From Candidatus Omnitrophota bacterium (lineage in GTDB: Bacteria > Omnitrophota > Gorgyraeia > Zapsychrales > Fredricksoniimonadaceae), in assembly GCA_903901225.1 (NCBI GenBank), contig CAIUQE010000001.1:2563-66562 (forward strand): DNA of 64,000 nucleotides. Reading direction: 5' to 3'. A program made the translations under genes and the position numbers. The notes below the pieces were generated by a model. The model searched no databases, was not told the origin of the DNA, and saw nothing but the letters and a program-made list of their open reading frames with translations. This document shows, piece by piece, positions 22,408-39,205 of the stretch; position 1 is the first letter of the stretch, and each line of letters starts with the position of its first letter.

Positions 22408-22431
22408 CCCGCGACACCTTTCGTGAGCTCA

Positions 22432-23214: not shown

Positions 23215-24203
23215 TTCCCTGACCGGGAGGAACGTTCGATCGCGGCAAGGACTTTCATGGTCCCTACAGCTTCCTGCATGCTGACCATCGCCGGTTTCCG
23301 GCCCTTGATCATATTTATAAAATGTTCAAGCTCATCCAGGTAGGTCTGATTGAAATCATAATTATCGGGCAAACGGAAAACATCCCTGTTCTCATGATCT
23401 TTCTTGCCCTGATAAGAAACTTTCTTGCTGTTCATATCCCAGTCCAGCGTGCCATTCTCCGCGATGATCTGGCAGCCCCGCACGAGACGCTGCGACAAAT
23501 AGCCAAGATGCAGTTCAACCGCCGTTCCATTCTTATACGCCAGGATGGCCGAGCACATGTCCTCCGTATCTATTTCCAAAGCGCTGACACGGTGGACATG
23601 GCCGAAAACTTTTTCAGGCATTCCCAGGAACCACAGCACATAGTCAATTTCATGAACAAGTTCCCTGTGCACACCGCCGCCCAGCGCCTTGCTGGCGCTG
23701 ATCGTCTTGCGGTAATCAACTCCCTTGCGCCAATGCGGCAAATAATAATCCGCGTACGCCCGGACACAATAGATCTTGCCCATTTTGGGAAGATGCTCCT
23801 TGATGAACCGCAGGACCGGATAATAACGCAAGTTGTAGGCAACATCCCAGCGTTTGAATTTTAAGGCTGTAAGTTTCTTTTCAAATTCACCCGCGGCTTT
23901 CAAGTCCATGACCGGCGGTTTTTCCAGCAGGAAAGGGATCTTTTTTCTGCCCATTACCAGCGCGTCGCGCAAATGCTGGCTCGTCGGAGAACAGATGATC
24001 GCGCCATCGATCCGCGCTTCTTTGGCCCACACCCCGTCATAAGAGGCATACTCTTTCAAACCCCTGTCATTGCCCGATCCCGCCGCATGGCGCAGTAAAA
24101 CCACCTCATGCCCCAACGCCAGCGCATTGGCCGCGTGCCTTTTGCCGATGGAACCATAGCCAATAACAAGGAACTTCATATCAGCGCCTGACCCCAAAAG
24201 CAC
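23172..24203 (-). CDS. Gfo/Idh/MocA-family NAD(P)-dependent oxidoreductase
   Basis: N-terminal MKFLVIGYGSIGKRHA Rossmann motif and the EKP consensus (LLEKPP) typical of the family. Confidence 0.75.
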   Translation of the reverse strand: MLLGSGADMKFLVIGYGSIGKRHAANALALGHEVVLLRHAAGSGNDRGLKEYASYDGVWAKEARIDGAIICSPTSQHLRDALVMGRKKIPFLLEKPPVMDLKAAGEFEKKLTALKFKRWDVAYNLRYYPVLRFIKEHLPKMGKIYCVRAYADYYLPHWRKGVDYRKTISASKALGGGVHRELVHEIDYVLWFLGMPEKVFGHVHRVSALEIDTEDMCSAILAYKNGTAVELHLGYLSQRLVRGCQIIAENGTLDWDMNSKKVSYQGKKDHENRDVFRLPDNYDFNQTYLDELEHFINMIKGRKPAMVSMQEAVGTMKVLAAIERSSRSGKWVPLITRQQKRAL

Positions 24204-25479
24204 TGATGGGTTTGCCCGTGATCAGGGACTTAAGATCCTTCCCGACGATGGCCTTGTGCAGTAATCCGAAAGCCTCATCGTAGATCTTCAGCGTATCCTC
24301 GATATCTTTGGGTTGATGCGCGTAACTCGGATGATGGTAACCGACGAACAACAGCCCCCGCTTCACGCATTCCTGCTGCAGGTACGACCTGATCTCGTTA
24401 ACGGAAAGGTCATCGACCGGAGAAAAAACAAGATGCTGCATGGGAGCAAGCCCTATGACCTTGATGATCTGCTCCAGCCCATGTTTGGCGACCAGGCGGA
24501 TAAGCCCCTCCTTCAGGATGGTGCCCATCTTCCAGATATGTTCGATCACCGGTTCATTCTCAATGATCTCGATCGTCTTCAAGGCCGCGTTAAGGCTGCA
24601 CTTCTCCGTCGCGTACGAAGCCGAAAAGAAGCACTGTTCATCGCCGAACTGCTCCATCAGGCTTTTCTTGCCGGCAAGAGCGCTGAGCGGAAAGCCGTTG
24701 GAAAGCCCTTTGGCGAAACATGCCAGGTCAGGCGTGACCTTGAAATAACGTTGCGCGCCACCCAAAGAAAGACGGAAGCCCGTCTTCATCTCATCGAAGA
24801 TCAGCACGATATTGTGTTCTGCCGTTAAACGGCGGATCCCTTCCAGGAAGCCTTCCTGCGGCTCTACCGTGATCACCGGCTCCATCACAAGGGCCGCGAT
24901 CTCATGGGCCTGCGCCTTGATCGTTGTTGCGATAGCCGCGAGGTCATTGTAATTGTGCGGGATCACCCATGCTGACATCTCCGCCGGGATCCCTTTATTG
25001 CGCGGCGTTGATGCGATGAACCAGTCATGAAAGCCATGGTAGCCGCCGACCGTGATAACCTTGCTCTTTTTGGTGAAATTCCTGGCCAGGCGTACAGCCC
25101 CTTCGCACACATCAGAACCATTCTTGCTGAACCTGACCATCTCGGCGCAGGGGATGATCTGCTTAAGCTTGGCCGCCAGGCGTGATTCTTCCGGGCAGGA
25201 TAACGTGAACACGAGGCCGTCATCAATACCCTGTTTCGCCGCGGCATTCACGCGCGGGTCCGCGTAACCGAGGTTGATCACGCCCAGGGACATGGAATAA
25301 TCGATGAATTCATTCCCGTCCACATCATAAACCCTGCAGCCTTTGGCCTTCTCAATGAAAAGGGGTGACGCGCCGATCACATACAGGTTCGGATTGCGGC
25401 TGAATGTGGAGGTCCCCATCGGGATCAATCCCAGCGCGTCCTCATACATCTTCAACGAATGTGTGAACTTCATTAACAA
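24181..25479 (-). CDS. Class III (GSA-aminomutase-like) PLP-dependent aminotransferase
   Basis: FDEMKTGFR motif (PLP-lysine region of class III aminotransferases such as HemL), a GYHG segment, about 432 aa. Confidence 0.75.
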   Translation of the reverse strand: MLMKFTHSLKMYEDALGLIPMGTSTFSRNPNLYVIGASPLFIEKAKGCRVYDVDGNEFIDYSMSLGVINLGYADPRVNAAAKQGIDDGLVFTLSCPEESRLAAKLKQIIPCAEMVRFSKNGSDVCEGAVRLARNFTKKSKVITVGGYHGFHDWFIASTPRNKGIPAEMSAWVIPHNYNDLAAIATTIKAQAHEIAALVMEPVITVEPQEGFLEGIRRLTAEHNIVLIFDEMKTGFRLSLGGAQRYFKVTPDLACFAKGLSNGFPLSALAGKKSLMEQFGDEQCFFSASYATEKCSLNAALKTIEIIENEPVIEHIWKMGTILKEGLIRLVAKHGLEQIIKVIGLAPMQHLVFSPVDDLSVNEIRSYLQQECVKRGLLFVGYHHPSYAHQPKDIEDTLKIYDEAFGLLHKAIVGKDLKSLITGKPISAFGVRR

Positions 25480-25482
25480 CTC

Positions 25483-26655
25483 CTATCTAAGAGAGAATAC
25501 AACCGCCTTGATCTCATCCTGCCCGAATTTCACCGGATTCTGGTCGAACGCCGCTTTCAACTGCGCTGAATTATCAACGATCAGCATCAGGTCGCTCTCC
25601 GTCTTGACCCCGAACCCCTTAAGGTCGGTCGGGATACCCAGCGCATGGCTAAGCGCCTCGATCGCATCCGCGAATTTTATGGATTTCTCTTTCGGGCTCA
25701 GCCCATGACCGTCGGATACGAGGTCATAAAGCTCGGCATATTCATAATATTCATGCGCGACATTATGCTTGATCACACCCGGCAAAAATACAGATCCTGC
25801 CAGGCCATGCGGGATATCAAAATAGACCCCCAGAGGATAGCTCAACGCACCCGCCGGACCTGCGCCGGCATTCATCAAAGCCGCCCCCGCGCAACCGCTG
25901 CCGATCAGCAGGTTCAGCTTGACGGGCGTTGACATGTCGCCTTGGGCAAGCTTGTTCAGGTTCTCAAAAAGGAGTTTGAACGCCTGCCGGGAAAACATCC
26001 TTGAAATGAAGGTGGCATTCCTGGCCACAAAACTCTCCAGGGTATGCGTCATGGCATCCATGCCCGCGGAAGCAAAAACCTTCATCGGGCAACTGCTCAA
26101 GAATTGGGGATCATAGACCGCCAGCCGCGGGTAATTGTACTCCGTGTTGATGCCGAACTTCCACTTTGCCGCCGTATCAATGAAGACCGCGTACGGGGTC
26201 ACTTCGCTGCCCGTCCCGGCCGTTGTCGGCAGTGCCACAACAGGTAAAGGCATATTCTTGACCTTGCCAAACCCGCGGTAATTGATCGCCGCGCCCTCGT
26301 TGGTCTTGAGCGTCGCCAACCCCTTGGTCAGGTCGAGCGTACTGCCACCGCCGATGCCGACAAAACAATCCAACGCCACATCCTGAAAACCCGCCTTGGA
26401 CTGATCCAAATGGTCATATGTCGGCTCAGGCATTTCATTCACAAAAAGCGTGACGTGTTCCAACTCTTTCTGGCAAATGCCAATGATCTCTTTAACATAC
26501 GGGCAATGGTCATAAACCCCTTTATCGACCACGAGGCCTATCCTGTTCCACGCATAGTTCTTGAGGTACTTCGGCAATTCACGGGCGATCCCGTCGCCGC
26601 TGAGCATTTCGGTCTTCATGACAAAACGGATATTTTCTTTCAAGTGATCTTTCAT
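25483..26655 (-). CDS. Iron-containing (group III) alcohol dehydrogenase / dehydroquinate-synthase-like oxidoreductase
   Basis: GIGGGSTLDLTKGLA NAD-binding glycine motif and conserved His-rich metal-binding region (HGLAGSV...H) of the Fe-ADH family. Confidence 0.7.
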   Translation of the reverse strand: MKDHLKENIRFVMKTEMLSGDGIARELPKYLKNYAWNRIGLVVDKGVYDHCPYVKEIIGICQKELEHVTLFVNEMPEPTYDHLDQSKAGFQDVALDCFVGIGGGSTLDLTKGLATLKTNEGAAINYRGFGKVKNMPLPVVALPTTAGTGSEVTPYAVFIDTAAKWKFGINTEYNYPRLAVYDPQFLSSCPMKVFASAGMDAMTHTLESFVARNATFISRMFSRQAFKLLFENLNKLAQGDMSTPVKLNLLIGSGCAGAALMNAGAGPAGALSYPLGVYFDIPHGLAGSVFLPGVIKHNVAHEYYEYAELYDLVSDGHGLSPKEKSIKFADAIEALSHALGIPTDLKGFGVKTESDLMLIVDNSAQLKAAFDQNPVKFGQDEIKAVVFSLR

Positions 26656-26695
26656 AGCCCATTCCTGTTAAATTTAATATTGTTTAAAACACACA

Positions 26696-27376
26696 TTACT
26701 TCACGCCATAGGCCACCACATGGCGCTCCCGCGAGAATTTAACCAGTTTGATAAATGGCGTAAGCTTGACTGTCGGAGGAAAATCGATCGGGACCAGCGC
26801 CGCGATGATCTCCGGGATAAATCGAAATAATTTATTCCGCCAGCTGAACGGCAAATAATGAATGTTCTCAGCCACCACATCCTTAAAGTCATAGCGCAAC
26901 AAAAGATCGTGCAGCGAAAAGACCGTGAACGGCGATTTATGGTCCGCATCATCATAAAACACCTTATAAACCGACTTCCAGTCGCATGTCAGGATAATGA
27001 TCTTTCCCCCCGGCTTGAGCACCCTGCGCAAGTTCTCCATAACGTGATAAACATTCCCAAGATGCTCAATAGCGGATTTCATCATGATAAAATCGAAATA
27101 ATTGTCCTCAAACGGCAAGGCCTCCCGGTCAATGTCAGCAACTTTGACCTTAAGCCCCTTGGCACACGCCAAGGAGTCCTTATCGACGCCGTACACATCG
27201 AACCCGAGGTCGGAGTAAATATCCACAAACTCTCCCCGGCCACAACAAACATCCAATAACTTACCCTTCCGGGCTTTAAAATATTTATCCGCCAAATGTT
27301 CGCACAATTGACGCGGGAATTTTGTATATGTCCGCACGTTCTCGTTATAATGGACCTTCGTATAACTGTTCTGCAT
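26696..27376 (-). CDS. Class I SAM-dependent methyltransferase
   Basis: SAM motif LLDVCCGRGEF plus VYGVD acidic loop. 226 aa. Confidence 0.65.
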   Translation of the reverse strand: MQNSYTKVHYNENVRTYTKFPRQLCEHLADKYFKARKGKLLDVCCGRGEFVDIYSDLGFDVYGVDKDSLACAKGLKVKVADIDREALPFEDNYFDFIMMKSAIEHLGNVYHVMENLRRVLKPGGKIIILTCDWKSVYKVFYDDADHKSPFTVFSLHDLLLRYDFKDVVAENIHYLPFSWRNKLFRFIPEIIAALVPIDFPPTVKLTPFIKLVKFSRERHVVAYGVK

Positions 27377-27381
27377 ACCCC

Positions 27382-29442
27382 TCAGGTCTCCTCTACTTTG
27401 TAAAAGAAATCACGGATATCCATGAATTCACTCATTTTCCGCAAGGTAACATTCTTGTTCTTGTGCGCGTATTGCTGCAACAATAATTCCAACGCCTGTT
27501 TCTGCTTCTCGGGAAGGTAAAAACGGAACTTGATGCCTTGGGGGCGATGGAACCGCTCAAGGTCCGTCTTATACTTGTCATTCTGCCATCCGAGGATATC
27601 ATAATGGAACGTAAGGACCTTTTCCCTGGAGACCTCTGCCCAATCAGAGGTCAGGTCAAGGATCGCGGCAAAATGGAACTTAAAAAGATCCTCGATAACG
27701 GCCCGCTTGGACTGGCAAAGGGGCGAATAATTAATTGCCGTCGCGAATAAGAACTCATTAAAACTGGCCATGGCTTCGATCAGGGTCTTAAATATATACT
27801 TCCCGTTCATCTTGCCGTGCTTGCCATCTTCCAGGTCTTTGAATTTCTCTGGCCGGCTGTAATGGGCCTTAAGATCATCCACCGAATCAAACCACTCAGC
27901 CCTGGCTTCCTGCTTGAATTCACTGAAGATCTCCTGGATCCTCTGATAGCTGGCATTTGTCTGGGCCTCATCGATCAATCTCAGGATGTAATCCAGAGGG
28001 CTGATGCCAATCGACCTTAAATATTTCAACACACCGTAATAGAACCTGTAATTCCACAGGAACTGGATGAGCCAATGGACCGGTCGAAAATACAGGATCT
28101 CATCCTCGGTCATGTCGGATGTCGCCCGAATACCTTCTTCAGCCTCGAAAGACATGCGGCCTTCATACGTGCCGAATGAATTATCAACAAGCCTGAATTT
28201 CGTCGTGCAATTGAACTTCCCATTTTCCTTCAGGAGCGACATCTCCGTCCCTTCCAGCAAAAGGGCGTTATAGCAGATGATGTAAGAAACATCCCAGTCG
28301 AAAAGGCTGCGCAGCGTCCTGATATGACTTTCTTTTGTTTCGCCAGGAAGCCCAAGGATGATCTCCGTGCCGGACATGCCGCCCATGGCATTGACCCTGT
28401 CCATGATGTCCTTGAATACGGAGATCTTGATATTGGCCCGGTTCACGTTCATGAGCACCTGCTCATCCAGCGACTGCAATGACACAATGATGTTCGAGCT
28501 TTTCAGGATCCGGGCGATCTCAAAAAGCTTCGGTTGATTCTTGGCCCAGTTCGTATTGAACTTCTTCAAGTTCTGCGTTTCATCGGACAACTTCGCGATA
28601 TATTCCGCGATCTCCATGTCACGTTCAACAACGCCGAAATTGGCATCCGCCAGGTTCAGGATGTTCGTGTTCTTGACTTTTGTGGCGATATAGCGCAATT
28701 CCTCCTTCACGCGGTCCATGCTGAAAAGATCCAGCCGGTTGTGCGAAGAAAATCCCTGCGCGCAAAATGTGCATGTGTACGGGCAGCCTCTGTTGGTCTC
28801 GACGATAGGGATAAGCTTGGTCTCGAAAAACTCATCCAGCAAGCCGGTCAGATAGGGTGAAGGGATGCTGTCAAGATCCTTGATCCTGGGAATATTATTA
28901 CCCACAACAGCGGCCCTGTTCCTCACATCATAAAAAATGACCCCGTCAATGGGCGCTGATCGCAACTGATCGATCTGCAGGCCTCTTGCCTCCACAGCCT
29001 TCAATAATTCAATAAAGGGTTTTTCCCCCTGATAGGGCACATAAAAATCCACATGCGGATGAGTTTCAAAGAACCGCGCATACCCGCGCGGAGAGTAATC
29101 AATGTTCGGCCCGCCAAAGACCACGATCGCCTGGGGATTGATCTCTTTAACGCGGGCCGATATCTTCTTATTGATATCCACGTTCCAGGTATAATTACTG
29201 AACCCCACAATATCAGCAGGATCCTTCTTGTACGCTGAAATGAACTGATCCGGATATTTGAACAACCTGACATCAACTTCCTGCGGCGCATATTTCCTGG
29301 CATAGCCGGCGATATAGGAAATATTCAGCGGGAACATATAGGTCCCCACGCCCAGATAGTTATGCACCAGATCACACAAATTTATCTTTAACGTTTTACG
29401 CACAGGCTTCACAGCTCCTTCGATCCCTACATCCCCAGGCAT
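27382..29442 (-). CDS. Cobalamin(B12)-binding radical SAM enzyme with long C-terminal extension
   Basis: N-terminal B12-binding-like domain, CxxxCxxC motif GCPYTCTFC, 686 aa. The C-terminal about 250 aa have no recognised motif. Confidence 0.75.
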   Translation of the reverse strand: MPGDVGIEGAVKPVRKTLKINLCDLVHNYLGVGTYMFPLNISYIAGYARKYAPQEVDVRLFKYPDQFISAYKKDPADIVGFSNYTWNVDINKKISARVKEINPQAIVVFGGPNIDYSPRGYARFFETHPHVDFYVPYQGEKPFIELLKAVEARGLQIDQLRSAPIDGVIFYDVRNRAAVVGNNIPRIKDLDSIPSPYLTGLLDEFFETKLIPIVETNRGCPYTCTFCAQGFSSHNRLDLFSMDRVKEELRYIATKVKNTNILNLADANFGVVERDMEIAEYIAKLSDETQNLKKFNTNWAKNQPKLFEIARILKSSNIIVSLQSLDEQVLMNVNRANIKISVFKDIMDRVNAMGGMSGTEIILGLPGETKESHIRTLRSLFDWDVSYIICYNALLLEGTEMSLLKENGKFNCTTKFRLVDNSFGTYEGRMSFEAEEGIRATSDMTEDEILYFRPVHWLIQFLWNYRFYYGVLKYLRSIGISPLDYILRLIDEAQTNASYQRIQEIFSEFKQEARAEWFDSVDDLKAHYSRPEKFKDLEDGKHGKMNGKYIFKTLIEAMASFNEFLFATAINYSPLCQSKRAVIEDLFKFHFAAILDLTSDWAEVSREKVLTFHYDILGWQNDKYKTDLERFHRPQGIKFRFYLPEKQKQALELLLQQYAHKNKNVTLRKMSEFMDIRDFFYKVEET

Positions 29443-30506
29443 TTGACCGTTTCACGGTATTTTTCCCACTGCCCGACATCCAGCCAGGCCTTTTCACTGA
29501 CAGGATAAACCCCGACCCTGCCATTATTATTTTTGACCAGCTTGATCAGGTCGGTGAAATCCAATGAGGCCCCCTTGGGTATCATCTTAAGCACGGACCT
29601 CTCCAGGATATACATCCCTGTATTCACCAACAGGTCATATTCCGGCTTCTCATCGATATCATTGAGCCTGCCATTGCCGTCTATTTTCAGGACACCGTAC
29701 GGGATCTTGAAATGATTCATGGAACCCACAACCGTTATGTCACACTTATTTTTTTTATGAAAACCATAAATATCCTGATAATCAGCTTTAATGATAATGT
29801 CGCAATTTGAAACAAAAAATGTCTTTGGCATGTCCTTATGGATCAGTTTGAGCCCGCCGGCAGTTCCCAGCGCTTCTTTCTCATGGACATACCCGATCTT
29901 GTAAGGCAGCGAAATATTGTCAAAATACGACCTTATCATTTCACTTTTATAACCAAGGACAAGATGGAATGTGCGGCATCCACTGGCATAAAAATTATCC
30001 ATGATGATCTCAACGACGGGCTTTTCACCGATGGGCAAAAGCGGTTTTGGCAAAATGCGGGTGAACGGATCCAGGCGGGCGCCCTTGCCTCCGGCCATGA
30101 TCACAACAGGCAGGTCGATCTTGGGCATCTCCATCCTCTGTCCGTGCCCGAAGATGACCTCCCAAAGGTGAACATCGACCAACCGACGAGCCCCGTCAAC
30201 AACGGGAATAGACTCAAGTTTCTGATCGATCATCATCTCCTTGATGGCATCGATCAGACAGGTGTCGCTCACAAAAACAGGTTTCTTGTTATAAACCTTA
30301 TCGATACTGTCTTTAAGGCTCTTGTCCGCGAGTATCCATTTACGGATATCACCATCCGTAAGAGCCCCCAGCAGCTTACGGTCATCATCAACAACAAATA
30401 ATATTTTCTCGGCGCCCTCCCCCATTTGCTTCATGGCATCACGGATGGACACGCCTTTTTTTATCAACAGCTTTTTGATGTTCTCTTTCACGTGAGGTCT
30501 CCCCAA
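29427..30506 (-). CDS. CBS-domain-containing sugar-phosphate nucleotidyltransferase (PtmE-like)
   Basis: N-terminal tandem CBS pair (…GALTDGDIRKWIL…, …ESIPVVDGARRLVDV…) followed by the nucleotidyltransferase core VIMAGGKGARLDPFTRILPKPLLPIGEKP. Confidence 0.75.
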   Translation of the reverse strand: MGRPHVKENIKKLLIKKGVSIRDAMKQMGEGAEKILFVVDDDRKLLGALTDGDIRKWILADKSLKDSIDKVYNKKPVFVSDTCLIDAIKEMMIDQKLESIPVVDGARRLVDVHLWEVIFGHGQRMEMPKIDLPVVIMAGGKGARLDPFTRILPKPLLPIGEKPVVEIIMDNFYASGCRTFHLVLGYKSEMIRSYFDNISLPYKIGYVHEKEALGTAGGLKLIHKDMPKTFFVSNCDIIIKADYQDIYGFHKKNKCDITVVGSMNHFKIPYGVLKIDGNGRLNDIDEKPEYDLLVNTGMYILERSVLKMIPKGASLDFTDLIKLVKNNNGRVGVYPVSEKAWLDVGQWEKYRETVKCLGM

Positions 30507-32170
30507 AAGATAACTTCGTCCTCTTTCTTGTCCCGGGACAACACGCGCCCCAAAGCCTTCGCCGCTTCCGCGGGCTGGATCCCGTTCCCGGGCCGTTTGA
30601 TAGAAAACATGTCTTCCCGCAAACGCGCCCCTTTCTTAAGGTCCCTGGCCGCCACAAGGCTTTTCCTGGCGACCTTCATGATGGCGATCTCGCTCCTGAC
30701 AGGAACTTTCTCCGGGATACCTAAACTGGTTTCGACATGGCGGATACCCTCGACCAGGCGCGCCAGCTCATCCGGCTCGACCGACGCTTTATGGTCAGGG
30801 CCCGGCATATTCCTGTCCAGGGTAAAATGTTTTTCAATGACACAGCACTCAAGTGCCGCCGCGGCAATGGCAATATCTGTCCCTGTCGTATGGTCCGAAT
30901 ACCCGACGGGCAACCCCGTCCTGGCGCGCAAAGATCGGATCACCCGTAAGTTCACTTCATCGAACGGACAGGGATAATTTGTTGTGCAATGCAGCAGGGT
31001 CAACGGCGGATACGGTGCCTTGCCCGTCACCCGCTGGGTACTGCCGATCACCTCAACAGCCTGCTCCACTTCCGCCAACGTCGACATCCCTGTGGAAAGG
31101 ATGATCGGCTTGTTCCGGGAAGCCACATGCCTGAGAAAAGGGATATCCGTGATATTGCCCGATGATATCTTGTACAATGGAACAAGGCCATCCAGAAGAT
31201 CAACGCTTTCCATATCAAATGGCGTCGAAAGGAAAATGATCTTTTTCCCGTCGCAATATTTCTTGAGCTCCATAAAATCCCGCCCTGACAGTTCAAGCTT
31301 TTTCAGCATTTCTAGCTGGCTTTCCTTCCGTCCGGGCATATTCTTTTTTTGATAAGAAGCTTTTTCGGCCATATTGGAAACGAGCTTCTCTGCCTTGAAT
31401 GTCTGGAACTTGACCGCGTCCACGCGTGCCGCCACAGCCGCGTCGATCAGCTTTTTTGCTGTTTCAAGGCTGCCGTTATGGTTCACCCCCGCCTCGGCGA
31501 TAATGAACACCCTGCTCTTTTTTGATAAAGGAACCCTGACACGGCAGGGATTTCCAAAAGCCTTACGGCCTGAGGGAATATCATCCGTCACAACACTCCC
31601 GGAACCGATAAGGCAGTCTTTGCCTATTTTCTTATACTGATTGACCACCGACCTCGCGCCGATATGGGTGCCCTCTCCGACAACAACCCCGCCGCTGAGC
31701 ACAGCCCCGGGCGCGATGTGCGCAAAATCGCCAATGGCACAATCGTGATCGACGGATGCTGAAGTATTAATGATGACATTCCGGCCTGTGACGACGCCGG
31801 GATTAATGGTGGCCGACGGGGCCACGAAGGTCCCATCACCCAGGACAACACCCGCCGCTACGGTAGCACCGGGATGGACCACCGCGGGCAGATGAAACCC
31901 GATCTTCCTGATCTTCGCATCGATCGCCCTGCGGGCGTCACAATGGCCGACAGAACCTACGCCGATAAAAGCGTAACGGACACCTTTCTTGTACACTTTG
32001 GCAAGTTCATCATCTGCGCCCAAAACATTGATACCGGCGACGTTGCTCCCGGCCTTCAGGGCATTATCAACGATCCCCGCGATATCGAACGCCGTGGCGC
32101 ACCGGATGGCATCGATCACCACCCTGGCATGCCCGCCACCGCCTATAAGCACGATCTTCTCTTTACGCAT
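30488..32170 (-). CDS. Fusion protein: NeuD/PglD-family hexapeptide acyltransferase (N-terminal) plus NeuB-family nonulosonate synthase (C-terminal)
   Basis: Residues about 1-210 begin IVLIGGGGHARVVID and carry LbH repeats (NeuD/PglD/WeeI-type sugar acetyltransferase). Residues about 215-560 begin RVFIIAEAGVNHNGSLETAKKLIDAAVAARVDAVKFQTF (NeuB TIM barrel) with a C-terminal SAF-like segment. Confidence 0.8.
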   Translation of the reverse strand: MRKEKIVLIGGGGHARVVIDAIRCATAFDIAGIVDNALKAGSNVAGINVLGADDELAKVYKKGVRYAFIGVGSVGHCDARRAIDAKIRKIGFHLPAVVHPGATVAAGVVLGDGTFVAPSATINPGVVTGRNVIINTSASVDHDCAIGDFAHIAPGAVLSGGVVVGEGTHIGARSVVNQYKKIGKDCLIGSGSVVTDDIPSGRKAFGNPCRVRVPLSKKSRVFIIAEAGVNHNGSLETAKKLIDAAVAARVDAVKFQTFKAEKLVSNMAEKASYQKKNMPGRKESQLEMLKKLELSGRDFMELKKYCDGKKIIFLSTPFDMESVDLLDGLVPLYKISSGNITDIPFLRHVASRNKPIILSTGMSTLAEVEQAVEVIGSTQRVTGKAPYPPLTLLHCTTNYPCPFDEVNLRVIRSLRARTGLPVGYSDHTTGTDIAIAAAALECCVIEKHFTLDRNMPGPDHKASVEPDELARLVEGIRHVETSLGIPEKVPVRSEIAIMKVARKSLVAARDLKKGARLREDMFSIKRPGNGIQPAEAAKALGRVLSRDKKEDEVIFWGDLT

Positions 32171-33323
32171 CGAAGAATTCCTTCTTCAAGAAATCCGCGC
32201 CGATCCGGATGTGCTTCAACTTTTCCTTGATCTTCATGGACGCTCCGCCGCAACCGTATGGATTCTTCATCCCCCGCAACGACTTTCTGAACGCGCCGCT
32301 CAAACCACGCTGAATGGCTTTCGTTATGTCAGCCGCCGCACTGCCGCAATCAATAACATTCCGCGCCTTCACCCGCCCCCGCTGGCGATCGCCGATATTG
32401 ACGACCGGCAATTTAAACGATGGCGCTTCCACAATACCGCTCGAAGAATTACCGATCATGATGTCGGCGCGTTTCAATAAAGAAAGATATCTTATGTGCC
32501 CCAGGGATGTGAACGCCCTGGCACGCCCGCTATTTTTTTTAACATAGCTTTTAATCTTGTTCACAATAACACTGTGCCCGGTGTCCGCGTTAGGCATCGT
32601 AAAAACAATATCTCCATCAAACTTATCCAAAGCCAAAAACACACTCTCCATTTGCTTGCCGGCGGTGTTATGCTCCAGCGTAACAGGATGGTACGTAACA
32701 GTGGCCAGCGGCCGGTCGCCGGAAATTCCGAGAACCCGCGCTAATTCTCCTTTTGATAGAAATTTAAGATGCTTCATGTTATCCATCCCGGGCGCTCCGT
32801 ACATGAATACCCGCTCCGGCGATTCCCCCATCCTGATGATCCTTTGGGCATACAGCTTTGTCGCCGGAAAATGAATGCCGGCCATTTTAGTAATGGCATG
32901 CCGGAAAGCCTCGTCGAGGGCGCCACCCGTTACCTCACCGCCGTGGATATGCGCCAGGGGGATGCGCGCAACATAAGCGGCGACAGCCGCCGCGAAGATC
33001 TCATACCGGTCTCCCAGAACAACGACGACATCCGGCTTAAGTCTTTTATAAACACCACTGAACCCGTCAATGCCGCGGCTGATCGCCCGTGTCATCGGCA
33101 TTTCCTTGCCTGCCGGGGAAAGAACATCCACTTTACCGCTGACCACAAAACCGTCTTGCCTGATCACATCGACAGTAGATCCGAAAGCGGAAGAAAGATG
33201 CGATCCTGTCACGACCACTTGCAGGGCCATCCCCGGATCATCCTTGACGGCCTTTAAAAGCCAGTAAAGATGCCCGTATTCGGCGCGCGATCCCGTCACA
33301 ATGCATATCTTTCGCTGGGGCAT
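32163..33323 (-). CDS. neuC: UDP-N-acetylglucosamine 2-epimerase, hydrolysing type (NeuC/LegG-like)
   Basis: N-terminus KICIVTGSRAEYGHLYWLLKA and downstream HIHGGE motif typical of NeuC-type hydrolysing 2-epimerases. 386 aa. Confidence 0.8.
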   Translation of the reverse strand: MPQRKICIVTGSRAEYGHLYWLLKAVKDDPGMALQVVVTGSHLSSAFGSTVDVIRQDGFVVSGKVDVLSPAGKEMPMTRAISRGIDGFSGVYKRLKPDVVVVLGDRYEIFAAAVAAYVARIPLAHIHGGEVTGGALDEAFRHAITKMAGIHFPATKLYAQRIIRMGESPERVFMYGAPGMDNMKHLKFLSKGELARVLGISGDRPLATVTYHPVTLEHNTAGKQMESVFLALDKFDGDIVFTMPNADTGHSVIVNKIKSYVKKNSGRARAFTSLGHIRYLSLLKRADIMIGNSSSGIVEAPSFKLPVVNIGDRQRGRVKARNVIDCGSAAADITKAIQRGLSGAFRKSLRGMKNPYGCGGASMKIKEKLKHIRIGADFLKKEFFDA

Positions 33324-33324
33324 G

Positions 33325-34437
33325 CTAAGAAGACCCCTTTTTCATAAGTCCTTCAATAGCATCACAGACTTCTTCAATGATCTTTTCCGTATTCAATGTC
33401 GAACTTGGAAGGCAAAGCCCCCGGTCATACAAGCGGTTGGCGTTGTCACAGCTTCCCCTCTGGAACGTGCCAGCGTACTGGAATGTCTGCATGGGCTTAA
33501 AGATCCTGCGTGAAGGAATACCCATTTTCTTCAAACCTTCATGCACCCTGATAACTTCAGCATTATCCTTGAATATGACCGCCGTAAACCACCAGGACGG
33601 ATCCGCGCCGGGATAAATCTCCTGCATGCCGCATATGCCGCGCGCCCGGAGTTTTGCCTCATAGATACGATGAAAAGATTTCTTAAGCTCGATGAACCCG
33701 TTAAGGCGGCTGAGCTGTGCCAGTCCCAGCGCCGCGTTCAAATTCGGCATGCGGTAATTGAACCCGACTTCCTGAAACCCTTCCTGGCCTTCACGCGGAT
33801 TAGCCTGATTGACCAGATAAACAGCCCTATCCAAAACCGTGGATGAACGCGCTACCATCATCCCGCCACCGCCAGTGGTCATCAATTTGTTCCCGTTAAA
33901 ACTGAAACAGCCGATATCGCCGAACATGCCAAGATGCCGGCCTGACAGAAAAGCGCTCAAGGACTCCGTCGCGTCCTCAACAACGAAAATACCTGCGGCG
34001 GCGGCAATGGCCGTAATATGTTCCATATCGCTGGCATTCCCGTAAAGATGCACCGGTATGACAGCCCTGGTCCGTGGCGTGATCGCCGCCTTGAACGCGG
34101 CAGGACAAAGGCACCATGTTTTCGGATCAATGTCAACAATAACGGGCGTAGCCCGGACATACATCACCGCGTGCAGCGTGGCGGCAAACGTCGTCGCAGG
34201 AACAATAACCTCATCACCCTCTCCGACTCCCAGGATGTGCAGGGCCATATGGAGCGCCGCCGTGCCGCTTTGAACCGCGACCGCGCGCGGAGCGCCGACA
34301 ACCCCCGCGAAGGCCTTCTCAAATTCCCCGACCAAAGGGCCGAACGTCGACACATAGCCGCTGTCGATCGCCGCGCAGACCTTTTCTTTTTCAACCGGCC
34401 CGATATCCGGGGCATCCAGGTGTATGGTCTTTGTCAT
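33325..34437 (-). CDS. DegT/DnrJ/EryC1/StrS-family PLP-dependent sugar aminotransferase (PseC/LegC-like)
   Basis: Family-typical core (…DIGPVEKEKVCAAIDSGYVS…, …FSFNGNKLMTTGGGGM… with the PLP-lysine region). The ORF track extends to 34611, but the likely start is the ATG at 34437, abutting the upstream dehydratase stop. Confidence 0.8.
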   Translation of the reverse strand: MTKTIHLDAPDIGPVEKEKVCAAIDSGYVSTFGPLVGEFEKAFAGVVGAPRAVAVQSGTAALHMALHILGVGEGDEVIVPATTFAATLHAVMYVRATPVIVDIDPKTWCLCPAAFKAAITPRTRAVIPVHLYGNASDMEHITAIAAAAGIFVVEDATESLSAFLSGRHLGMFGDIGCFSFNGNKLMTTGGGGMMVARSSTVLDRAVYLVNQANPREGQEGFQEVGFNYRMPNLNAALGLAQLSRLNGFIELKKSFHRIYEAKLRARGICGMQEIYPGADPSWWFTAVIFKDNAEVIRVHEGLKKMGIPSRRIFKPMQTFQYAGTFQRGSCDNANRLYDRGLCLPSSTLNTEKIIEEVCDAIEGLMKKGSS

Positions 34438-34438
34438 A

Positions 34439-35473
34439 TCAGATATTCTTATACTGCCGCGCGTCAGCGTCGGCAAAAACGCCCTCTTCGATCGACGCCT
34501 TGACCTCCCTGATCCCGTCAGGGACGCGTTTGGAAATACGAAAACCCAGGACTTCGCGTATTTTCTTGAACGCAACACGATAGTCGCGGGGGTCCTGGGA
34601 CCTTTGCACATACTTGACCTTCAAGGCAGGAATGAACTTGCGGATCTCGTCCACGAGCATTTGTTTCTGGTAATTCTCGTCGGTGTCGCCGACATTGAAG
34701 ACATTATACGCGACCTTGGCGGCATCCGCCTCGATCGACAGGATGATCGCCTGGGCAAAATCATACACATGGCAGTACGGGCGCCAGAACTGCTCGCCAA
34801 ACACTTCCAATTCGCGGCCAAGGGTGAACTCGCGGGTGAATTCATTGACCGTCAGGTCAAAGCGCATGCGCGGCGATATGCCATAAACCGTCGAAAAACG
34901 CAGGATGACCGGACTGAAACCGGCAGGACGGTCCTTGTCATTCAAAATATGCTGTTCAAATGCCACCTTGGTCTCGGCGTAAAGTGAAACCGGAGATAAC
35001 GCTGAATTTTCATCAACATAGCCGGCGCCATCTTCCATTTTGCCGTAATTGCTGCACGTCGATGAAAAAATAAATTTCTTACAGCCCGCCTTCTTTGCCC
35101 TCGCGTACAGATCACGCGCACCCTCCCCGTTCACTTTACGCGCCAGGTCAGGCTGTTTGGCGCAGGCAGGATCTCCCACAATAGCCGCCAAATGCACAAT
35201 AGCCTCAGGTTTAAAATCAGCAAGAACCCGGTCAATATCTCCGGCAACGGTCACATCGCCTTTGGTGAATGAGAACAGGCTGTCGTGCCAGTGGGCCAGC
35301 AGGCTCTCCCCGCCGAAACTCAAATTATCAAAAACCCGCACCCTATAGCCGGCTTTTAATAAAGCTCCCACAAGGACCGATCCGATATATCCCGCGCCAC
35401 CCGTGACCAAAATTGATTTCTTGTTTGACATAAATAGCTCCCCGCGATGTCCCATTAAACAAATCTTTTTCAA
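34439..35473 (-). CDS. NAD-dependent epimerase/dehydratase (extended SDR). Candidate nucleotide-sugar 4,6-dehydratase of the legionaminic/bacillosamine type (LegB/PglF-core-like).
   Basis: ILVTGGAGYIGS Rossmann motif and YxxxK (YAETK). About 330 aa. Precedes the DegT aminotransferase as in Leg/Pgl pathways. A possible internal start lies at 35431. Confidence 0.7.
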   Translation of the reverse strand: MKKICLMGHRGELFMSNKKSILVTGGAGYIGSVLVGALLKAGYRVRVFDNLSFGGESLLAHWHDSLFSFTKGDVTVAGDIDRVLADFKPEAIVHLAAIVGDPACAKQPDLARKVNGEGARDLYARAKKAGCKKFIFSSTCSNYGKMEDGAGYVDENSALSPVSLYAETKVAFEQHILNDKDRPAGFSPVILRFSTVYGISPRMRFDLTVNEFTREFTLGRELEVFGEQFWRPYCHVYDFAQAIILSIEADAAKVAYNVFNVGDTDENYQKQMLVDEIRKFIPALKVKYVQRSQDPRDYRVAFKKIREVLGFRISKRVPDGIREVKASIEEGVFADADARQYKNI

Positions 35474-35501: not shown

Positions 35502-36233
35502 TTATTTCCTTATCGTCCAAAAATCCGCCGCCAGTGTCTCCAAATACGCAAACGGCATCGTAAAGTACCCTTTCATCCCCCATGCTTCGCCCCAGGAATT
35601 ACGCACCAGGAAACGCTTGTCTTTCTGGTCATACCCGACCGCCAGCACCGCGTGCCCACCGAGCATCCGCTCGGTCTTCTTCGGCATCGGGACTTTGCCG
35701 GTCTTGGCCACCTGCGGGGCCTGAAGGCTTTCATAGACCGAAAATCCAAACACGAACGGGAAACCTTCGGACAAACACGACAGCATATCCGCCAGCGTCA
35801 CGATCCTGTGATATGAAACGATCCGGTGTTTCAGACCTTCCTGATAACAGCGCGCGAGGGGCTTGGCCGCGAACTTTTCGATCGCATACGGCCAGGCCTT
35901 CTCCGAACAAACGCCGTTGGCCGCCAATGTTTTGATCCCGTTACGCAACGAGGCCCCCGAATCCGCCGCCACACTGCCCTGAAGCACCCGTTCATTATAA
36001 TAAATGAAAAGCCGGCTGGCATCGGTATAAGCCCCGTCCGCCTCTTTGTCCAGGAATTCAATATTCCCGGCCAACGCGTTGGCCGTGCAGCTGCCCAACT
36101 GGCCCTGGTCTTCGACGGCGGAACAATGGGCGCGAAGGTCAACCGCCACCGGCACCCGCACTTTTGGCCTGATGGCACTGTAATAAAAGTCCCTGCTGTC
36201 CGGTATATCCGGGATCCAACCATATTTCTTCAT
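35502..36233 (-). CDS. Papain-like (C1 family) cysteine peptidase homolog, no signal peptide
   Basis: Gln-oxyanion and Cys nucleophile region QGQLGSCTANA (compare papain QGxCGSCWAF), His region GGHAVLAVGYD and Asn/Trp region NSWGEAWGMKGYF. All three catalytic-triad blocks are present in the canonical order. No N-terminal hydrophobic signal. Confidence 0.65.
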   Translation of the reverse strand: MKKYGWIPDIPDSRDFYYSAIRPKVRVPVAVDLRAHCSAVEDQGQLGSCTANALAGNIEFLDKEADGAYTDASRLFIYYNERVLQGSVAADSGASLRNGIKTLAANGVCSEKAWPYAIEKFAAKPLARCYQEGLKHRIVSYHRIVTLADMLSCLSEGFPFVFGFSVYESLQAPQVAKTGKVPMPKKTERMLGGHAVLAVGYDQKDKRFLVRNSWGEAWGMKGYFTMPFAYLETLAADFWTIRK

Positions 36234-37276
36234 GCCACACTCCCTTCTGCAAGCATCCTGCCATCACCACCAACATTCCCCTTGGCTCTGTCTGCCTCAA
36301 GTTCGTAAAACTCATTGAGTTTCTGCTGTAATATCTCCTTCCGGGGCAAACATGTCTTGTACTCGGCCACCAGCGCGGGAGAAAGCGTACGGCTTAACGC
36401 GTATTCGACAACTTCGGAATCTTTAGACTTGCACAAAAGAATACCAATGCTCGGTTTTTCATGCGCTTTGCGAACATCACGATCCAGGGCTTCGAGATAG
36501 AATGAAAGCTGGCCCATATATCCTGGTTTAAAGTCATCGATCTTCAATTCAAATGCCACCAGGCACGAAAGCCCGCGATGAAAAAACAATAGGTCCACAA
36601 AGAAATCTTGTCCGCCTACTTGAAGTCGATACTCCTCACCTGCAAAACAAAAATCACGGCCTAATTCCATAAGAAATTTCTTCAAATTTGAAACAAGCCC
36701 GTTCTTCAGGTCTTTTTCAGAATGATTATCAGGTAAATTCAGGAAATCCAACAAATAAATATCCTTAAACTCTTCCTGAGCATCAGGGAATAAAAATGCG
36801 GCCGGTGGTGATACTTTTGCCGGAAGAAGCACTTTACGTTCAAACAAACACCCATCGATCTGTCGTTCCAGTTCCCTCTTGGACAAACGATCCTTGATCG
36901 CCAGACGTATATAAAATTCCCGTTCTTCTGACAGTTTACATTTATTCAAAACGATCAAATGATGCGCCCAGGGTAATTGTCTCACCAACGGTGAGACTTT
37001 TGCATCATGCCGGTAAGCCTCATATAACTGCCTCATCCTGAACAGGTTGGGACGGGTAAATCCTTTTAAATCAGGGTGATCCTTCGCAATATGATGCGCA
37101 AGATTGTCAATAACCCCTTCCCCCCAGGAGGCAGATTCAACCTTTTGGCTTATATATTGCCCCACCTGCCAGTATAAATCTATCAATACAGTATTGACCG
37201 CTTGGTACGCTTTATGGCGAGCCCCGCGGATCAAATTCACCACTTCACTGAAAGACTGTTCAAGAACTTCGCTCAC
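36230..37276 (-). CDS. YhcG/DUF1016-family PDDEXK nuclease homolog
   Basis: N-terminal …VNTVLIDLYWQVGQYI…WGEGVIDNLAHHI…GFTRPNLFRMRQLYEAY… pattern and C-terminal PD-(D/E)xK-like …FELKIDDFKPGYMGQLSFYL…IGILLC… block characteristic of DUF1016. 4-bp overlap with the downstream peptidase gene. Confidence 0.7.
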   Translation of the reverse strand: MSEVLEQSFSEVVNLIRGARHKAYQAVNTVLIDLYWQVGQYISQKVESASWGEGVIDNLAHHIAKDHPDLKGFTRPNLFRMRQLYEAYRHDAKVSPLVRQLPWAHHLIVLNKCKLSEEREFYIRLAIKDRLSKRELERQIDGCLFERKVLLPAKVSPPAAFLFPDAQEEFKDIYLLDFLNLPDNHSEKDLKNGLVSNLKKFLMELGRDFCFAGEEYRLQVGGQDFFVDLLFFHRGLSCLVAFELKIDDFKPGYMGQLSFYLEALDRDVRKAHEKPSIGILLCKSKDSEVVEYALSRTLSPALVAEYKTCLPRKEILQQKLNEFYELEADRAKGNVGGDGRMLAEGSVA

Positions 37277-37523
37277 TCAAAGGCTCCGATTTCCTTATAG
37301 TCTAAGAAGCTGTGGTTCCAACGCAATTATCGTGACAGTGTCGCGACAATCTCTTGTCCATACTCCGCGCGCCGCCTCGATGAGCGAACGAACGTCATTA
37401 AGCACCTTGGTATCTAGGGTTACAACCGCAACTGTCTTCTTTACAGACTTTGCCTTTACCATAACTGACTCACCATCCAGAAATCCACGCCGTCCGATAT
37501 GTCCGCGACCAATCCATATTTTT

Positions 37524-38102
37524 TCATGCCACACTCCCTTGTGCCAACAACCTGTCTTCTCCAAGACTTTGTGTCAGAAAGGCTTCATCCCTGGCAAGTT
37601 CATCGATCACCTGCACAGCGCGAACACCTTCAGGCACGATCACCCCTTCACGGCATATCAGGATGATCCCGTCGACCGGAATATCCCGCACTTCTTCGAT
37701 GTGCCATAATTCATGCTGGCCGAAAAATTCTTCCATCAAAACCATCTCGATAAGGCCCGCCAGGTCCGAAGCCCCCAGCACATAAAATTTGCGCACACCC
37801 GTAACATGCAGCCGTGCGAGCAACCCTTCAATATTCTTTTTAACTAACCCGATGGAGTTCAACGTCTTAAGCGTGTATTTGACGGATTTTTGCATCTTTT
37901 CAGCAAAACCCTTGGGCGTCAACAGGTATTCAACCTTCTTTTTATTGAGCTGTTTGATGCGGATATGGCCTTTGGTCAAAAGCCGGTGGATGAGCATGTT
38001 GGTCATGCCCAGCGAAAGGTTCATCTGGCGGGAAATTTCGCGCTGGCTGGCGCCCAATTCCCCGCCGATGATATTGATCAATTCAAATTCCCGTTCATCC
38101 AT
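37524..38102 (-). CDS. Winged-helix (MarR-like, possibly EPS-associated) transcriptional regulator with C-terminal extension
   Basis: N-terminal about 95 aa, LINIIGGELGASQREISRQMNLSLGMTNMLIHRLLTKGHI…, has the wHTH layout of MarR-type regulators. A perfect palindrome lies 24 bp upstream of its start codon. Confidence 0.55.
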   Translation of the reverse strand: MDEREFELINIIGGELGASQREISRQMNLSLGMTNMLIHRLLTKGHIRIKQLNKKKVEYLLTPKGFAEKMQKSVKYTLKTLNSIGLVKKNIEGLLARLHVTGVRKFYVLGASDLAGLIEMVLMEEFFGQHELWHIEEVRDIPVDGIILICREGVIVPEGVRAVQVIDELARDEAFLTQSLGEDRLLAQGSVA

Positions 38103-38125: not shown

Positions 38126-38142
38126 TGTTCAAATAATGAACA
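38126..38142. promoter_or_regulatory. Perfect palindrome TGTTCA-AATAA-TGAACA; candidate operator upstream of the wHTH regulator gene
   Basis: Read directly in the sequence 24 bp upstream of the minus-strand ATG at 38100-38102, in the AT-rich intergenic region between the regulator and galE. Confidence 0.3.
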
Positions 38143-38185
38143 ATTATAACAAATCAAAGCCTTTTGTCAAAAAGTATTGTGCCAA

Positions 38186-39205
38186 TTACGCTTTGGAACG
38201 AGAGTGAAAAGAATTTGCGGCCTTTTCCTGCGCCATTTCCCAGGCCCAGGCTGAAGCAATGATCTCCTGAAGGTCGCGCGAAGGCTTCCATCCCAGAAGT
38301 TTACGCGCTTTGGCAAACGAAGCCACGACCTTAACGCAATCACCCGGACGGCGGGGGCCGTAAATGACCGACACCGGACGCCCAATGACTTTCTCCGTTG
38401 TCTTAATGACCTCTTTAACGGAAAATCCGCGGCCATTGCCAAGATTGATCATTTCATTTTTGACGCGCCCCGTGAACAGCTTGAGCAACGCTAACAGATG
38501 GGCATCGCACAGGTCCAGCACATGGATATAGTCGCGGACGCAACTGCCATCAGGCGTGTCATAATCAGTCCCGAAGACCGTAAGCGCCTGCTGGAGCAGT
38601 ATCGAGCGCATGACATTGGGGATAAGGTGCGTCGGTTTCTCCATCTTGATGCCGATATCGCCCGAAGGATGGGCACCGGCCACGTTGAAATACCGCAGGG
38701 CAATGAAATCCACCTTACCGGCGCGCGCCATATCGCCAAGGATCTGTTCGGCGATGACCTTGGTGGCACCATAAGGATTTGCCACTTTCAAAGGCTCATC
38801 CTCAAGGATGGGGTTCTTCAACGGTTCGCCATAAACACACGCCGAAGAAGAAAAAACGATGCGGCGCACACCCGCCTCCTCCATGGCCCTGAGCAGATTG
38901 AGCGTGCCTGTCACATTATTGTCATAATACTTCAAAGGATCGCTCACGGATTCCGGGACAACGATCACGGCCGCGTAATGAATGACAGCGTCGATGCTGA
39001 ATTTCCGGAAAACCTTTCGGATATCATCGAGCCGGCGCAGGTCACCCTTGACCAGCGGCACGCCCGCCGGGATGAATTCCCTGTGCCCGGTCGAAAGATT
39101 ATCGAATATAACAGGCGCGTAACCCCCGTCAAGAAGAAGGCGCGCCATATGGGAACCGATATAACCCGCCCCGCCCGTCACCAGGATCATCTTTTTTTTC
39201 ATCAA
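38186..39205 (-). CDS. galE: UDP-glucose 4-epimerase
   Basis: ILVTGGAGYIGSH N-terminus, YxxxK (YGATK), length 339 aa and overall GalE block order (…FIHVLDLCDAH…). Confidence 0.85.
   Translation of the reverse strand: MMKKKMILVTGGAGYIGSHMARLLLDGGYAPVIFDNLSTGHREFIPAGVPLVKGDLRRLDDIRKVFRKFSIDAVIHYAAVIVVPESVSDPLKYYDNNVTGTLNLLRAMEEAGVRRIVFSSSACVYGEPLKNPILEDEPLKVANPYGATKVIAEQILGDMARAGKVDFIALRYFNVAGAHPSGDIGIKMEKPTHLIPNVMRSILLQQALTVFGTDYDTPDGSCVRDYIHVLDLCDAHLLALLKLFTGRVKNEMINLGNGRGFSVKEVIKTTEKVIGRPVSVIYGPRRPGDCVKVVASFAKARKLLGWKPSRDLQEIIASAWAWEMAQEKAANSFHSRSKA

Follow-up and report, generated by a model that had tools for sequence, protein, structure and literature searches.

A xylellain-type cysteine peptidase and a DUF1016 protein as probable accessory passengers behind the regulator of an Omnitrophota surface-glycan operon

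The head of the operon

We analysed a 64-kb stretch of DNA (64,000 nucleotides, hereafter the window) from an uncultured Candidatus Omnitrophota bacterium, focusing on two genes that stand directly before a set of genes for a decorated, legionaminic-type nonulosonate: one encodes a papain-like C1A cysteine peptidase and the other a YhcG/DUF1016 protein. Open reading frame (ORF) analysis places the peptidase gene at 35502-36233 (243 aa, ATG start) and the DUF1016 gene at 36230-37276 (348 aa, GTG start), both on the minus strand and sharing the four nucleotides ATGA at 36230-36233. An initial annotation of the region had given the same two overlapping frames, and the three sequence blocks that it had listed for the peptidase (QGQLGSCTANA, GGHAVLAVGYD and NSWGEAWGMKGYF) are each found in that ORF. 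Its family assignments hold as well, since both proteins are intact members by their Pfam scores. Loci of relatives that we compared with the window are labelled L001, L002 and so on.

The peptidase matches Peptidase_C1 (PF00112) at 60.6 bits over residues 27-226, against a cut-off of 20.7. In HMMER alignments with chymopapain, cathepsin K and the Protein Data Bank (PDB) entry 3OIS, its Gln43, Cys49, His194, Asn212 and Trp214 align to Gln19, Cys25, His159, Asn175 and Trp177 of papain, and all five are invariant across an alignment of 22 family members. The initial annotation had named such an alignment as its own check, and the catalytic Cys, His and Asn come through it unsubstituted. The closest solved structure is PDB 3OIS_A (‘Cysteine protease’; E=1.9e-58), with peptidase residues 3-242 matching chain residues 32-287; this entry is xylellain of Xylella fastidiosa. 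The xylellain structure paper is cited, without a PDB code, in PMC10380794 and PMC12090721. By these matches the peptidase is classed as a xylellain-type short C1A cysteine peptidase, a known kind. We looked for a hydrophobic N-terminus in residues 1-40 and found none, the highest Kyte-Doolittle mean over any 11-residue window being 0.92; the position of the papain disulfide residue Cys22 is occupied by Leu46. Both features fit a cytoplasmic peptidase, as had been proposed from the lack of a signal peptide. The N-terminal motif GWxPDxPDxRD is invariant in the family alignment. With an overall pLDDT of 62, and values below 50 in residues 1-24, the AlphaFold2 (AF2) model of the peptidase was of low confidence and was set aside.

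The two genes were thought to lead the operon, but a winged-helix (MarR-like) regulator gene (37524-38102, minus strand, 192 aa) with its own promoter and operator precedes them. The predicted promoter and operator span 38126-38170 on the minus strand: TTGACA (38170-38165) and TATAAT (38148-38143) are separated by 16 nt, match the consensus at 12 of 12 positions and are accompanied by an extended TG, and the palindrome TGTTCATTATTTGAACA (38142-38126) directly follows TATAAT. The palindrome occurs once in the window, where 0.10 copies would be expected by chance, and about 33 of 37 related loci (L001-L003 and the L084-L121 range) carry the promoter together with a GTTCA-N5/6-TGAAC palindrome. 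The palindrome is probably the regulator’s own operator, covering the start region of the promoter. From this arrangement, glycan operons of this Omnitrophota lineage appear to be headed by the regulator gene, with its promoter and operator, as a conserved first gene.

The regulator itself gives weak profile matches to HTH_24/MarR and reaches 50.8 bits against TIGR04176, below the 88-bit cut-off of that model. Its AF2 model (pLDDT 82) combines a winged helix with a long helix and, at the C-terminus, a small alpha/beta domain. Foldseek relates it to MarR proteins across the N-terminal half only, and the same search with the C-terminal domain returned no convincing fold match; a Rex-like reading of that domain is unsupported by the Foldseek matches. 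Within it (residues ~102-172, window 37524-37800), G102, G110, D113, C150 and E152 are invariant in 41 homologs. The domain may be a ligand sensor. We found 712 regulator homologs; wherever a source is named for one of them, it belongs to Omnitrophota. Members of the closest peptidase clade (at least 71% identical) have a 180-192-aa winged-helix protein as upstream neighbour. A hidden Markov model (HMM) of the regulator, run against all ORFs of 80 species-level peptidase loci, matched in the four closest loci only, so that the regulator-peptidase pairing is clade-specific.

On the other side of the peptidase, the first sugar gene encodes a short-chain dehydrogenase/reductase (SDR) of the dehydratase/epimerase type (PF01370; 34439-35473, minus strand). 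The 28-bp gap reported between peptidase and SDR holds if the SDR is read as its longest ORF, from TTG 35473, and not for the likelier start at ATG 35431, which leaves 70 nt; this ATG is preceded by GGGGAG and is the start in a public gene call (carried by L083). Peptidase and DUF1016 genes are on the strand of the sugar genes, as had been noted, and same-strand ORFs with short gaps run from 38102 to about 833. No terminator-like site was detected in the peptidase-SDR spacer, and the RNA fold of this spacer was no better than that of shuffled sequences (z = -0.12). The peptidase is probably co-transcribed with whichever glycan cassette follows it. The dN/dS ratios of the peptidase (0.10-0.13), the regulator (0.11) and the DUF1016 gene (0.045, with dS saturated) indicate that purifying selection maintains all three and that the peptidase and DUF1016 genes are functional.

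Cassette exchange and the DUF1016 insertion

The comparison with L003 separates the peptidase from the sugar genes that follow it. The peptidases of the window and L003 are 88% identical and the regulators 91% identical, and blastn aligns window positions 38201-37481 and 36266-35503 at 84-85%, covering promoter, regulator, junction and peptidase. The alignment takes in all but the last base (35502) of the peptidase stop codon. The sequence beyond is unaligned, and the downstream sugar genes of the two loci are unrelated. We compared downstream cassettes among peptidase orthologs of 75-88% identity, covering 6-7 kb in each case. The peptidase is followed by an SDR, a radical SAM protein, a family 9 glycosyltransferase (GT9) and a transketolase in L003; by an ABC-2/Wzt transporter and methyltransferases in L002; by an SDR, an ABC transporter and a family 1 glycosyltransferase (GT1) in L084; and by an ABC transporter, an SDR, a DegT protein, a class III aminotransferase and an aldo-keto reductase in L086. 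None of these four loci has Neu genes within the 6-7 kb. In L102, a gene of the CMP-sugar synthetase type comes after the peptidase. The nonulosonate cassette is exchanged independently of the peptidase and DUF1016 genes.

An unbiased scan of metagenome contigs with the regulator family provided 24 loci with enough downstream sequence. The peptidase follows the regulator in three of them (L087, L098 and L102). Among the genes directly after the regulator in the other 21 are nucleotidyltransferases, ABC-2 permeases, SIS isomerases, PseB-like or GMD-like dehydratases, an FkbM methyltransferase, a 2-hydroxyacid dehydrogenase, GalE and a RhuM-Fic protein (L095, L096). In L099, an SDR 77% identical to that of the window stands directly behind the regulator, without a peptidase. 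Loci that do have the peptidase can carry further genes between it and the regulator: DUF1016 in the window and L001, a Fic protein with HTH_17 in L002, and a 605-aa GHKL-type ATPase in L098. In a neighbour-joining tree of the regulator (no bootstrap), the loci with a peptidase fall into about three groups, between which loci without one are interspersed. We compared lineages for a conserved att-like core ahead of the peptidase ATG and found that the junction sequences differ. On this sequence comparison, the position after the regulator appears to be a promoter-proximal cargo slot that holds sugar genes in most loci and accessory genes in a minority.

Fic/Doc genes occur in three architectures in Omnitrophota glycan loci, as RhuM-Fic (L095/L096:6535-7527), Fic-HTH_17 (L002:5973-7004) and a short Doc (L010:3788-4177); they adjoin the regulator or the peptidase, and the contig of P0242 is also listed among them. 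Upstream of the window regulator lies GalE (38186-39205, minus strand), which is absent in L003, where a reversed B12 radical-SAM gene (L003:7762-9326) takes its place; by this difference, the region upstream of the regulator is a swap point as well.

The DUF1016 gene stands between the regulator and the peptidase as a full-length gene whose product scores 147 bits against DUF1016_N and 187 bits against YhcG_C (PF17761, PF06250), both far over the cut-offs, and matches the PADLOC candidate family PDC-S02 at 1e-132. The PD-(D/E)XK core can be read in the segments FFVDLLFF, AFELK and GQLSFY common to the window and L001 copies, a reading of the sequence and not a structural alignment. The gene is flanked by an 83-nt direct repeat with 78% identity and a spacing of 1294 nt. 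Copy B (36187-36269, minus strand) holds the DUF1016 C-terminal tail, the Shine-Dalgarno sequence GGGAG, the ATGA overlap and the 5' end of the live peptidase gene; it starts ~35 nt before the live peptidase ATG and encodes the last ~13 DUF1016 residues. Copy A (37481-37563, minus strand) contains the authentic 3' end of the regulator gene together with an ATGA overlap and the initial ~45 nt of a second, dead copy of the peptidase gene. L003 9968-10047 matches the window twice by blastn, and in a three-way alignment with this empty site, copy A joins the regulator body without a break and reaches ~45 nt into a peptidase start. Read against the family alignment, the dead copy is a stub (37456-37527, minus strand; MKKYGLVADISDGVDFWMVSQLW*) in which the family-invariant W6, P8, P11 and R14 are replaced. 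The DUF1016 tail, ending in GDGRMLAEGSVA, resembles the regulator end, GEDRLLAQGSVA; the L001 DUF1016 protein, 78% identical to that of the window, is 13 residues shorter and lacks this tail.

Regulator and peptidase genes overlap directly, with an uninterrupted junction, in L003 and L087, the nearest relatives on the regulator tree, which argues that the insertion is specific to the window’s lineage; all 19 contigs read that carry an identical peptidase have the filled architecture. The insert of ~1.2 kb consists of the DUF1016 gene and a 204-nt orphan segment (37277-37480, minus strand) that would have arrived with it and has no similarity to any of the fetched loci by blastn. Part of this segment (37295-37440) was considered as a remnant of the DUF1016 N-terminus and rejected, BLASTP giving no alignment with DUF1016 and blastn no similarity to the loci. 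No inverted repeats were found at the ends of the insert and no recombinase or transposase gene within its 1.2 kb, and it does not qualify as a transposon, insertion sequence (IS) or integron cassette. Other gene junctions hold the closest relatives of the DUF1016 gene (77-82% identity), namely those between GalE and regulator, between an AAA ATPase and regulator, and one inside a type II secretion system (T2SS)/pilus operon, and relatives at 64-70% identity occur in unrelated phyla. DUF1016 genes have been described as piggybacking on mobile elements (PMC4316617). From the scar that can still be read in the junction, the DUF1016 gene appears to be a secondary insertion. The suggestion that the nuclease-fold protein is a hitch-hiker is thereby borne out, by the 80-nt junction duplication flanking the gene and by the uninterrupted junctions of L003 and L087.

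Two of the loci mentioned here merit a separate remark. On the 1.9-kb contig of L087 (1686-1873), the regulator is 90% identical to that of the window and the junction is uninterrupted, and the peptidase has a TTG start and is apparently frameshifted after the N-terminal motif, as a pseudogene or through an assembly error. In L125 (5001-6053), a DUF1016 gene whose product is 77% identical to that of the window lies between a T2SSF-type gene and a pilin gene, with a 20-nt overlap with the pilin ORF, a further case of insertion at an operon junction.

The cassette now behind the peptidase in the window (21667-34611, minus strand) encodes a LegC-like aminotransferase, NeuC, a NeuD-NeuB fusion, a CBS-nucleotidyltransferase, a B12 radical-SAM methyltransferase, a further methyltransferase, an iron-containing alcohol dehydrogenase (Fe-ADH), a class III aminotransferase, a Gfo/Idh/MocA oxidoreductase, an SDR and a CMP-sugar synthetase. 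In the fusion, a single 560-aa ORF (30488-32170, minus strand), residues 5-210 form a hexapeptide acetyltransferase of the NeuD/PglD type, and residues 221-559 a NeuB-type nonulosonate synthase that includes an SAF domain. The best match of the B12-binding radical-SAM protein (27382-29442, minus strand) is the KedN5 C-methyltransferase family, at 217 bits against a cut-off of 700; the protein may C-methylate the sugar or its acyl group.

Peptidase family distribution and competing explanations

Protein databases hold at least 8000 matches to the peptidase; the best 120 of these are 65-100% identical to it, and nearly all named ones are Candidatus Omnitrophota. A scan of species-representative genomes yielded at least 492 relatives with 54-88% identity in Omnitrophota, Verrucomicrobiota, Planctomycetota, Desulfobacterota, Bacteroidota, Acidobacteriota, Xanthomonas, actinobacteria, bacteria of the candidate phyla radiation (CPR) and one archaeal metagenome-assembled genome (MAG). 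Homologs also occur on plasmids and in jumbo phages, with identity up to 49.6%; the full-length homolog at this value belongs to an uncultured 595-kb jumbo phage (LR756511.1:449283-450017). Xylellain-type short bacterial C1A peptidases have been described as widespread, prone to horizontal gene transfer (HGT) and present in phages and giant viruses (PMC10380794).

We surveyed the neighbourhoods of the 80 species-level peptidase loci by calling ORFs comparatively and clustering the neighbours. No neighbour is conserved across phyla among these loci: 144 immediate neighbours fall into 135 Pfam families. The most frequent family, with six members, is the chagasin inhibitor I42. The I42 genes lie 9-136 nt downstream of the peptidase (L026, L036, L050, L051, L079 and L080), all in phyla other than Omnitrophota, including an archaeal MAG, Verrucomicrobiota and Bacteroidota, and one of them was confirmed at 76.7 bits. 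A chagasin-type protease inhibitor is the sole recurrent partner of the peptidase family in the 80 loci, which argues that family members are active proteases whose cytoplasmic activity needs restraint. In the 64-kb window, a search for an I42-like ORF or an NPTTG motif found neither. NeuB lies within 10 kb of the peptidase in one of the 80 loci, and any of seven sugar-gene queries in 11; across genomes, the peptidase and NeuB/NeuC-type genes are not co-inherited. Omnitrophota that lack the regulator keep the peptidase in glycan loci, flanked by MNT-HEPN pairs (L009) or by XRE and Doc genes (L010).

Three other explanations of the peptidase were weighed against these data. The initial annotation had proposed that the papain-fold protein could work as an amidase or transamidase, with the N-acyl group of the downstream pathway's nonulosonate as its target. 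The gene is on the same strand, 28-70 nt upstream of that pathway with no terminator between, and the peptidase of L102 precedes a CMP-sugar synthetase-type gene. Yet homology with L003 breaks at the peptidase stop codon, the cassettes of the orthologs vary and are Neu-free across 6-7 kb, L099 has the closely similar SDR behind its regulator and no peptidase, NeuB is nearby in a single locus of the 80, the family’s recurrent partner is an inhibitor of protein proteases, and the closest characterised relative is a peptidase. The proposal is not borne out, and we regard it as highly improbable. Another explanation joins the peptidase to the regulator: in the style of a repressor with its anti-repressor protease, it would cleave or control the regulator or a protein of the glycan machinery and so tune cassette expression. 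The regulator stop and peptidase start overlap or are at most 7 nt apart in L003, L084 and L086, and would have overlapped at the ancestral junction of the window; both genes are on the conserved side of the homology breakpoint and persist across differing cassettes. Against this, 21 of the 24 informative regulator loci have no peptidase downstream, most members of the peptidase family, in many phyla, have no such regulator, and DUF1016, Fic or ATPase genes are tolerated between the two with neither being lost. The pairing is optional, which weakens this reading, and we consider it quite unlikely.

A third explanation makes the peptidase a toxin-like or anti-phage effector, an intracellular protease restrained by its N-terminal segment, or elsewhere by chagasin, and carried with selfish and defence genes at a glycan locus that specifies the phage receptor. 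Its Omnitrophota neighbours do include DUF1016 (PDC-S02), Fic/Doc, MNT-HEPN pairs and a GHKL ATPase, the chagasin inhibitor is the only recurrent partner, homologs are found in jumbo phages and on plasmids, and the distribution is very HGT-prone (our survey; PMC10380794). However, no PADLOC family matched the peptidase at E<=0.1, its neighbours in most loci across phyla are ordinary housekeeping genes, cross-phylum identities of 54-88% are unusual for arms-race genes, and the co-location may simply reflect glycan loci as general recombination hot spots. This explanation appears unlikely to us. Much the same doubt attaches to a broader form of it, which we would likewise call unlikely, namely that the slot collects selfish and defence genes and that xylellain-type peptidases are latent toxin-like or abortive-infection effectors, restrained N-terminally here and by chagasin ‘antitoxins’ in other phyla.

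We consider it probable that the peptidase and DUF1016 genes are accessory passengers behind the operon regulator rather than sugar-pathway enzymes, the DUF1016 gene having been inserted later. The regulator gene would head the operon and be transcribed from the near-perfect sigma70-type promoter, with the 17-bp palindrome over the start region, and the slot just behind it would take accessory genes in a minority of loci. The peptidase would be one such accessory, a cytoplasmic endopeptidase that acts on a protein substrate and not on a sugar. At the ancestral junction, the peptidase start would have overlapped the regulator stop (ATGA), giving translational coupling. A 1.2-kb segment with a solo DUF1016 gene would then have entered this overlap, duplicating 80 nt. 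The regulator would have retained its own 3' end, DUF1016 would have gained a borrowed tail of 13 residues, and the dead peptidase stub would have remained. The peptidase would have kept its GGGAG ribosome-binding site and ATGA, coupled from then on to DUF1016 instead of the regulator, and both passengers would ride on the transcription of the operon.

Several observations weigh against this account. The tight coupling of regulator and peptidase could mean a functional pair and not passive carriage. The insertions of DUF1016, Fic and ATPase genes in L001, L002, L098, L123 and L125 were searched for a duplicated junction of this kind and showed none, and the 80-nt duplication is therefore not a general signature of the insertion mechanism. 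In nearly all Omnitrophota cases examined, the peptidase lies within surface-glycan loci; our exclusion applies to the particular sugar pathway, and a general link of the peptidase to glycans or the envelope may exist in this phylum. Autoregulation and co-transcription are both deduced from sequence alone. Restraint of the peptidase by its own conserved N-terminal segment is likewise deduced. The substrate of xylellain is stated to be unknown (PMC12090721).

Comparison with known systems

The results leave current knowledge in place; among the by-products of the analysis, the cargo slot and the module of promoter and operator are of more use. The idea of a papain-fold sugar amidase can be removed from the annotation of the nonulosonate operon. 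What the locus offers is a testable module of promoter, operator and regulator that would head surface-glycan operons in an uncultured phylum, together with a clear case of such an operon whose promoter-proximal junction has taken in accessory genes and shows a scar of insertion that is still legible. The chagasin partnership is comparative evidence that the members of the large, uncharacterised xylellain-type family are active intracellular proteases. If the effector reading were true, it would provide the first physiological role for a very widespread orphan protease family.

The window peptidase resembles xylellain (3OIS) over the full length, has the same catalytic residues and the N-terminal G(W/Y)xPDxxDxRD, and has no classical pro-domain (I29). 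It differs in lacking the ~30 extra N-terminal residues of the crystallised chain (the match begins at chain residue 32) and in being encoded within a glycan operon, in an uncultured member of the Omnitrophota. In work of Leite and colleagues from 2013 in FEBS Lett, part of the xylellain N-terminus reportedly blocks the active site, and a ribonucleotide is said to be bound outside the active site. With pairs of chagasin (I42) and papain-like peptidases, the link is through the family: six members carry an I42 gene downstream, whereas the window has none. The DUF1016 protein resembles YhcG/DUF1016 proteins (PDC-S02) in having both Pfam domains and the D...ExK...Q motif, and may have a nuclease or defence role. 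The window copy differs from them in being solo, without a nearby recombinase or restriction-modification partner, and in being wedged into a translationally coupled junction with a C-terminal tail copied from the regulator gene.

The regulator resembles the TIGR04176 MarR-family exopolysaccharide (EPS)-associated regulators in its N-terminal winged helix, its position at the head of a polysaccharide locus and a palindromic operator at its own promoter. It falls below the equivalog cut-off (50.8 versus 88 bits) and is thus not a member, and an additional long helix and the C-terminal alpha/beta domain set it further apart. O-antigen and capsule loci have conserved flanks that anchor cassette exchange, such as galF/gnd in enterobacteria. 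Similarly, in the Omnitrophota loci a conserved border of GAPDH, MTHFR ... regulator, with or without the peptidase, adjoins a hypervariable glycan cassette at which homology ends abruptly; unlike the flanks of O-antigen and capsule loci, the Omnitrophota flank contains a promoter-proximal slot that gathers non-glycan accessory genes.

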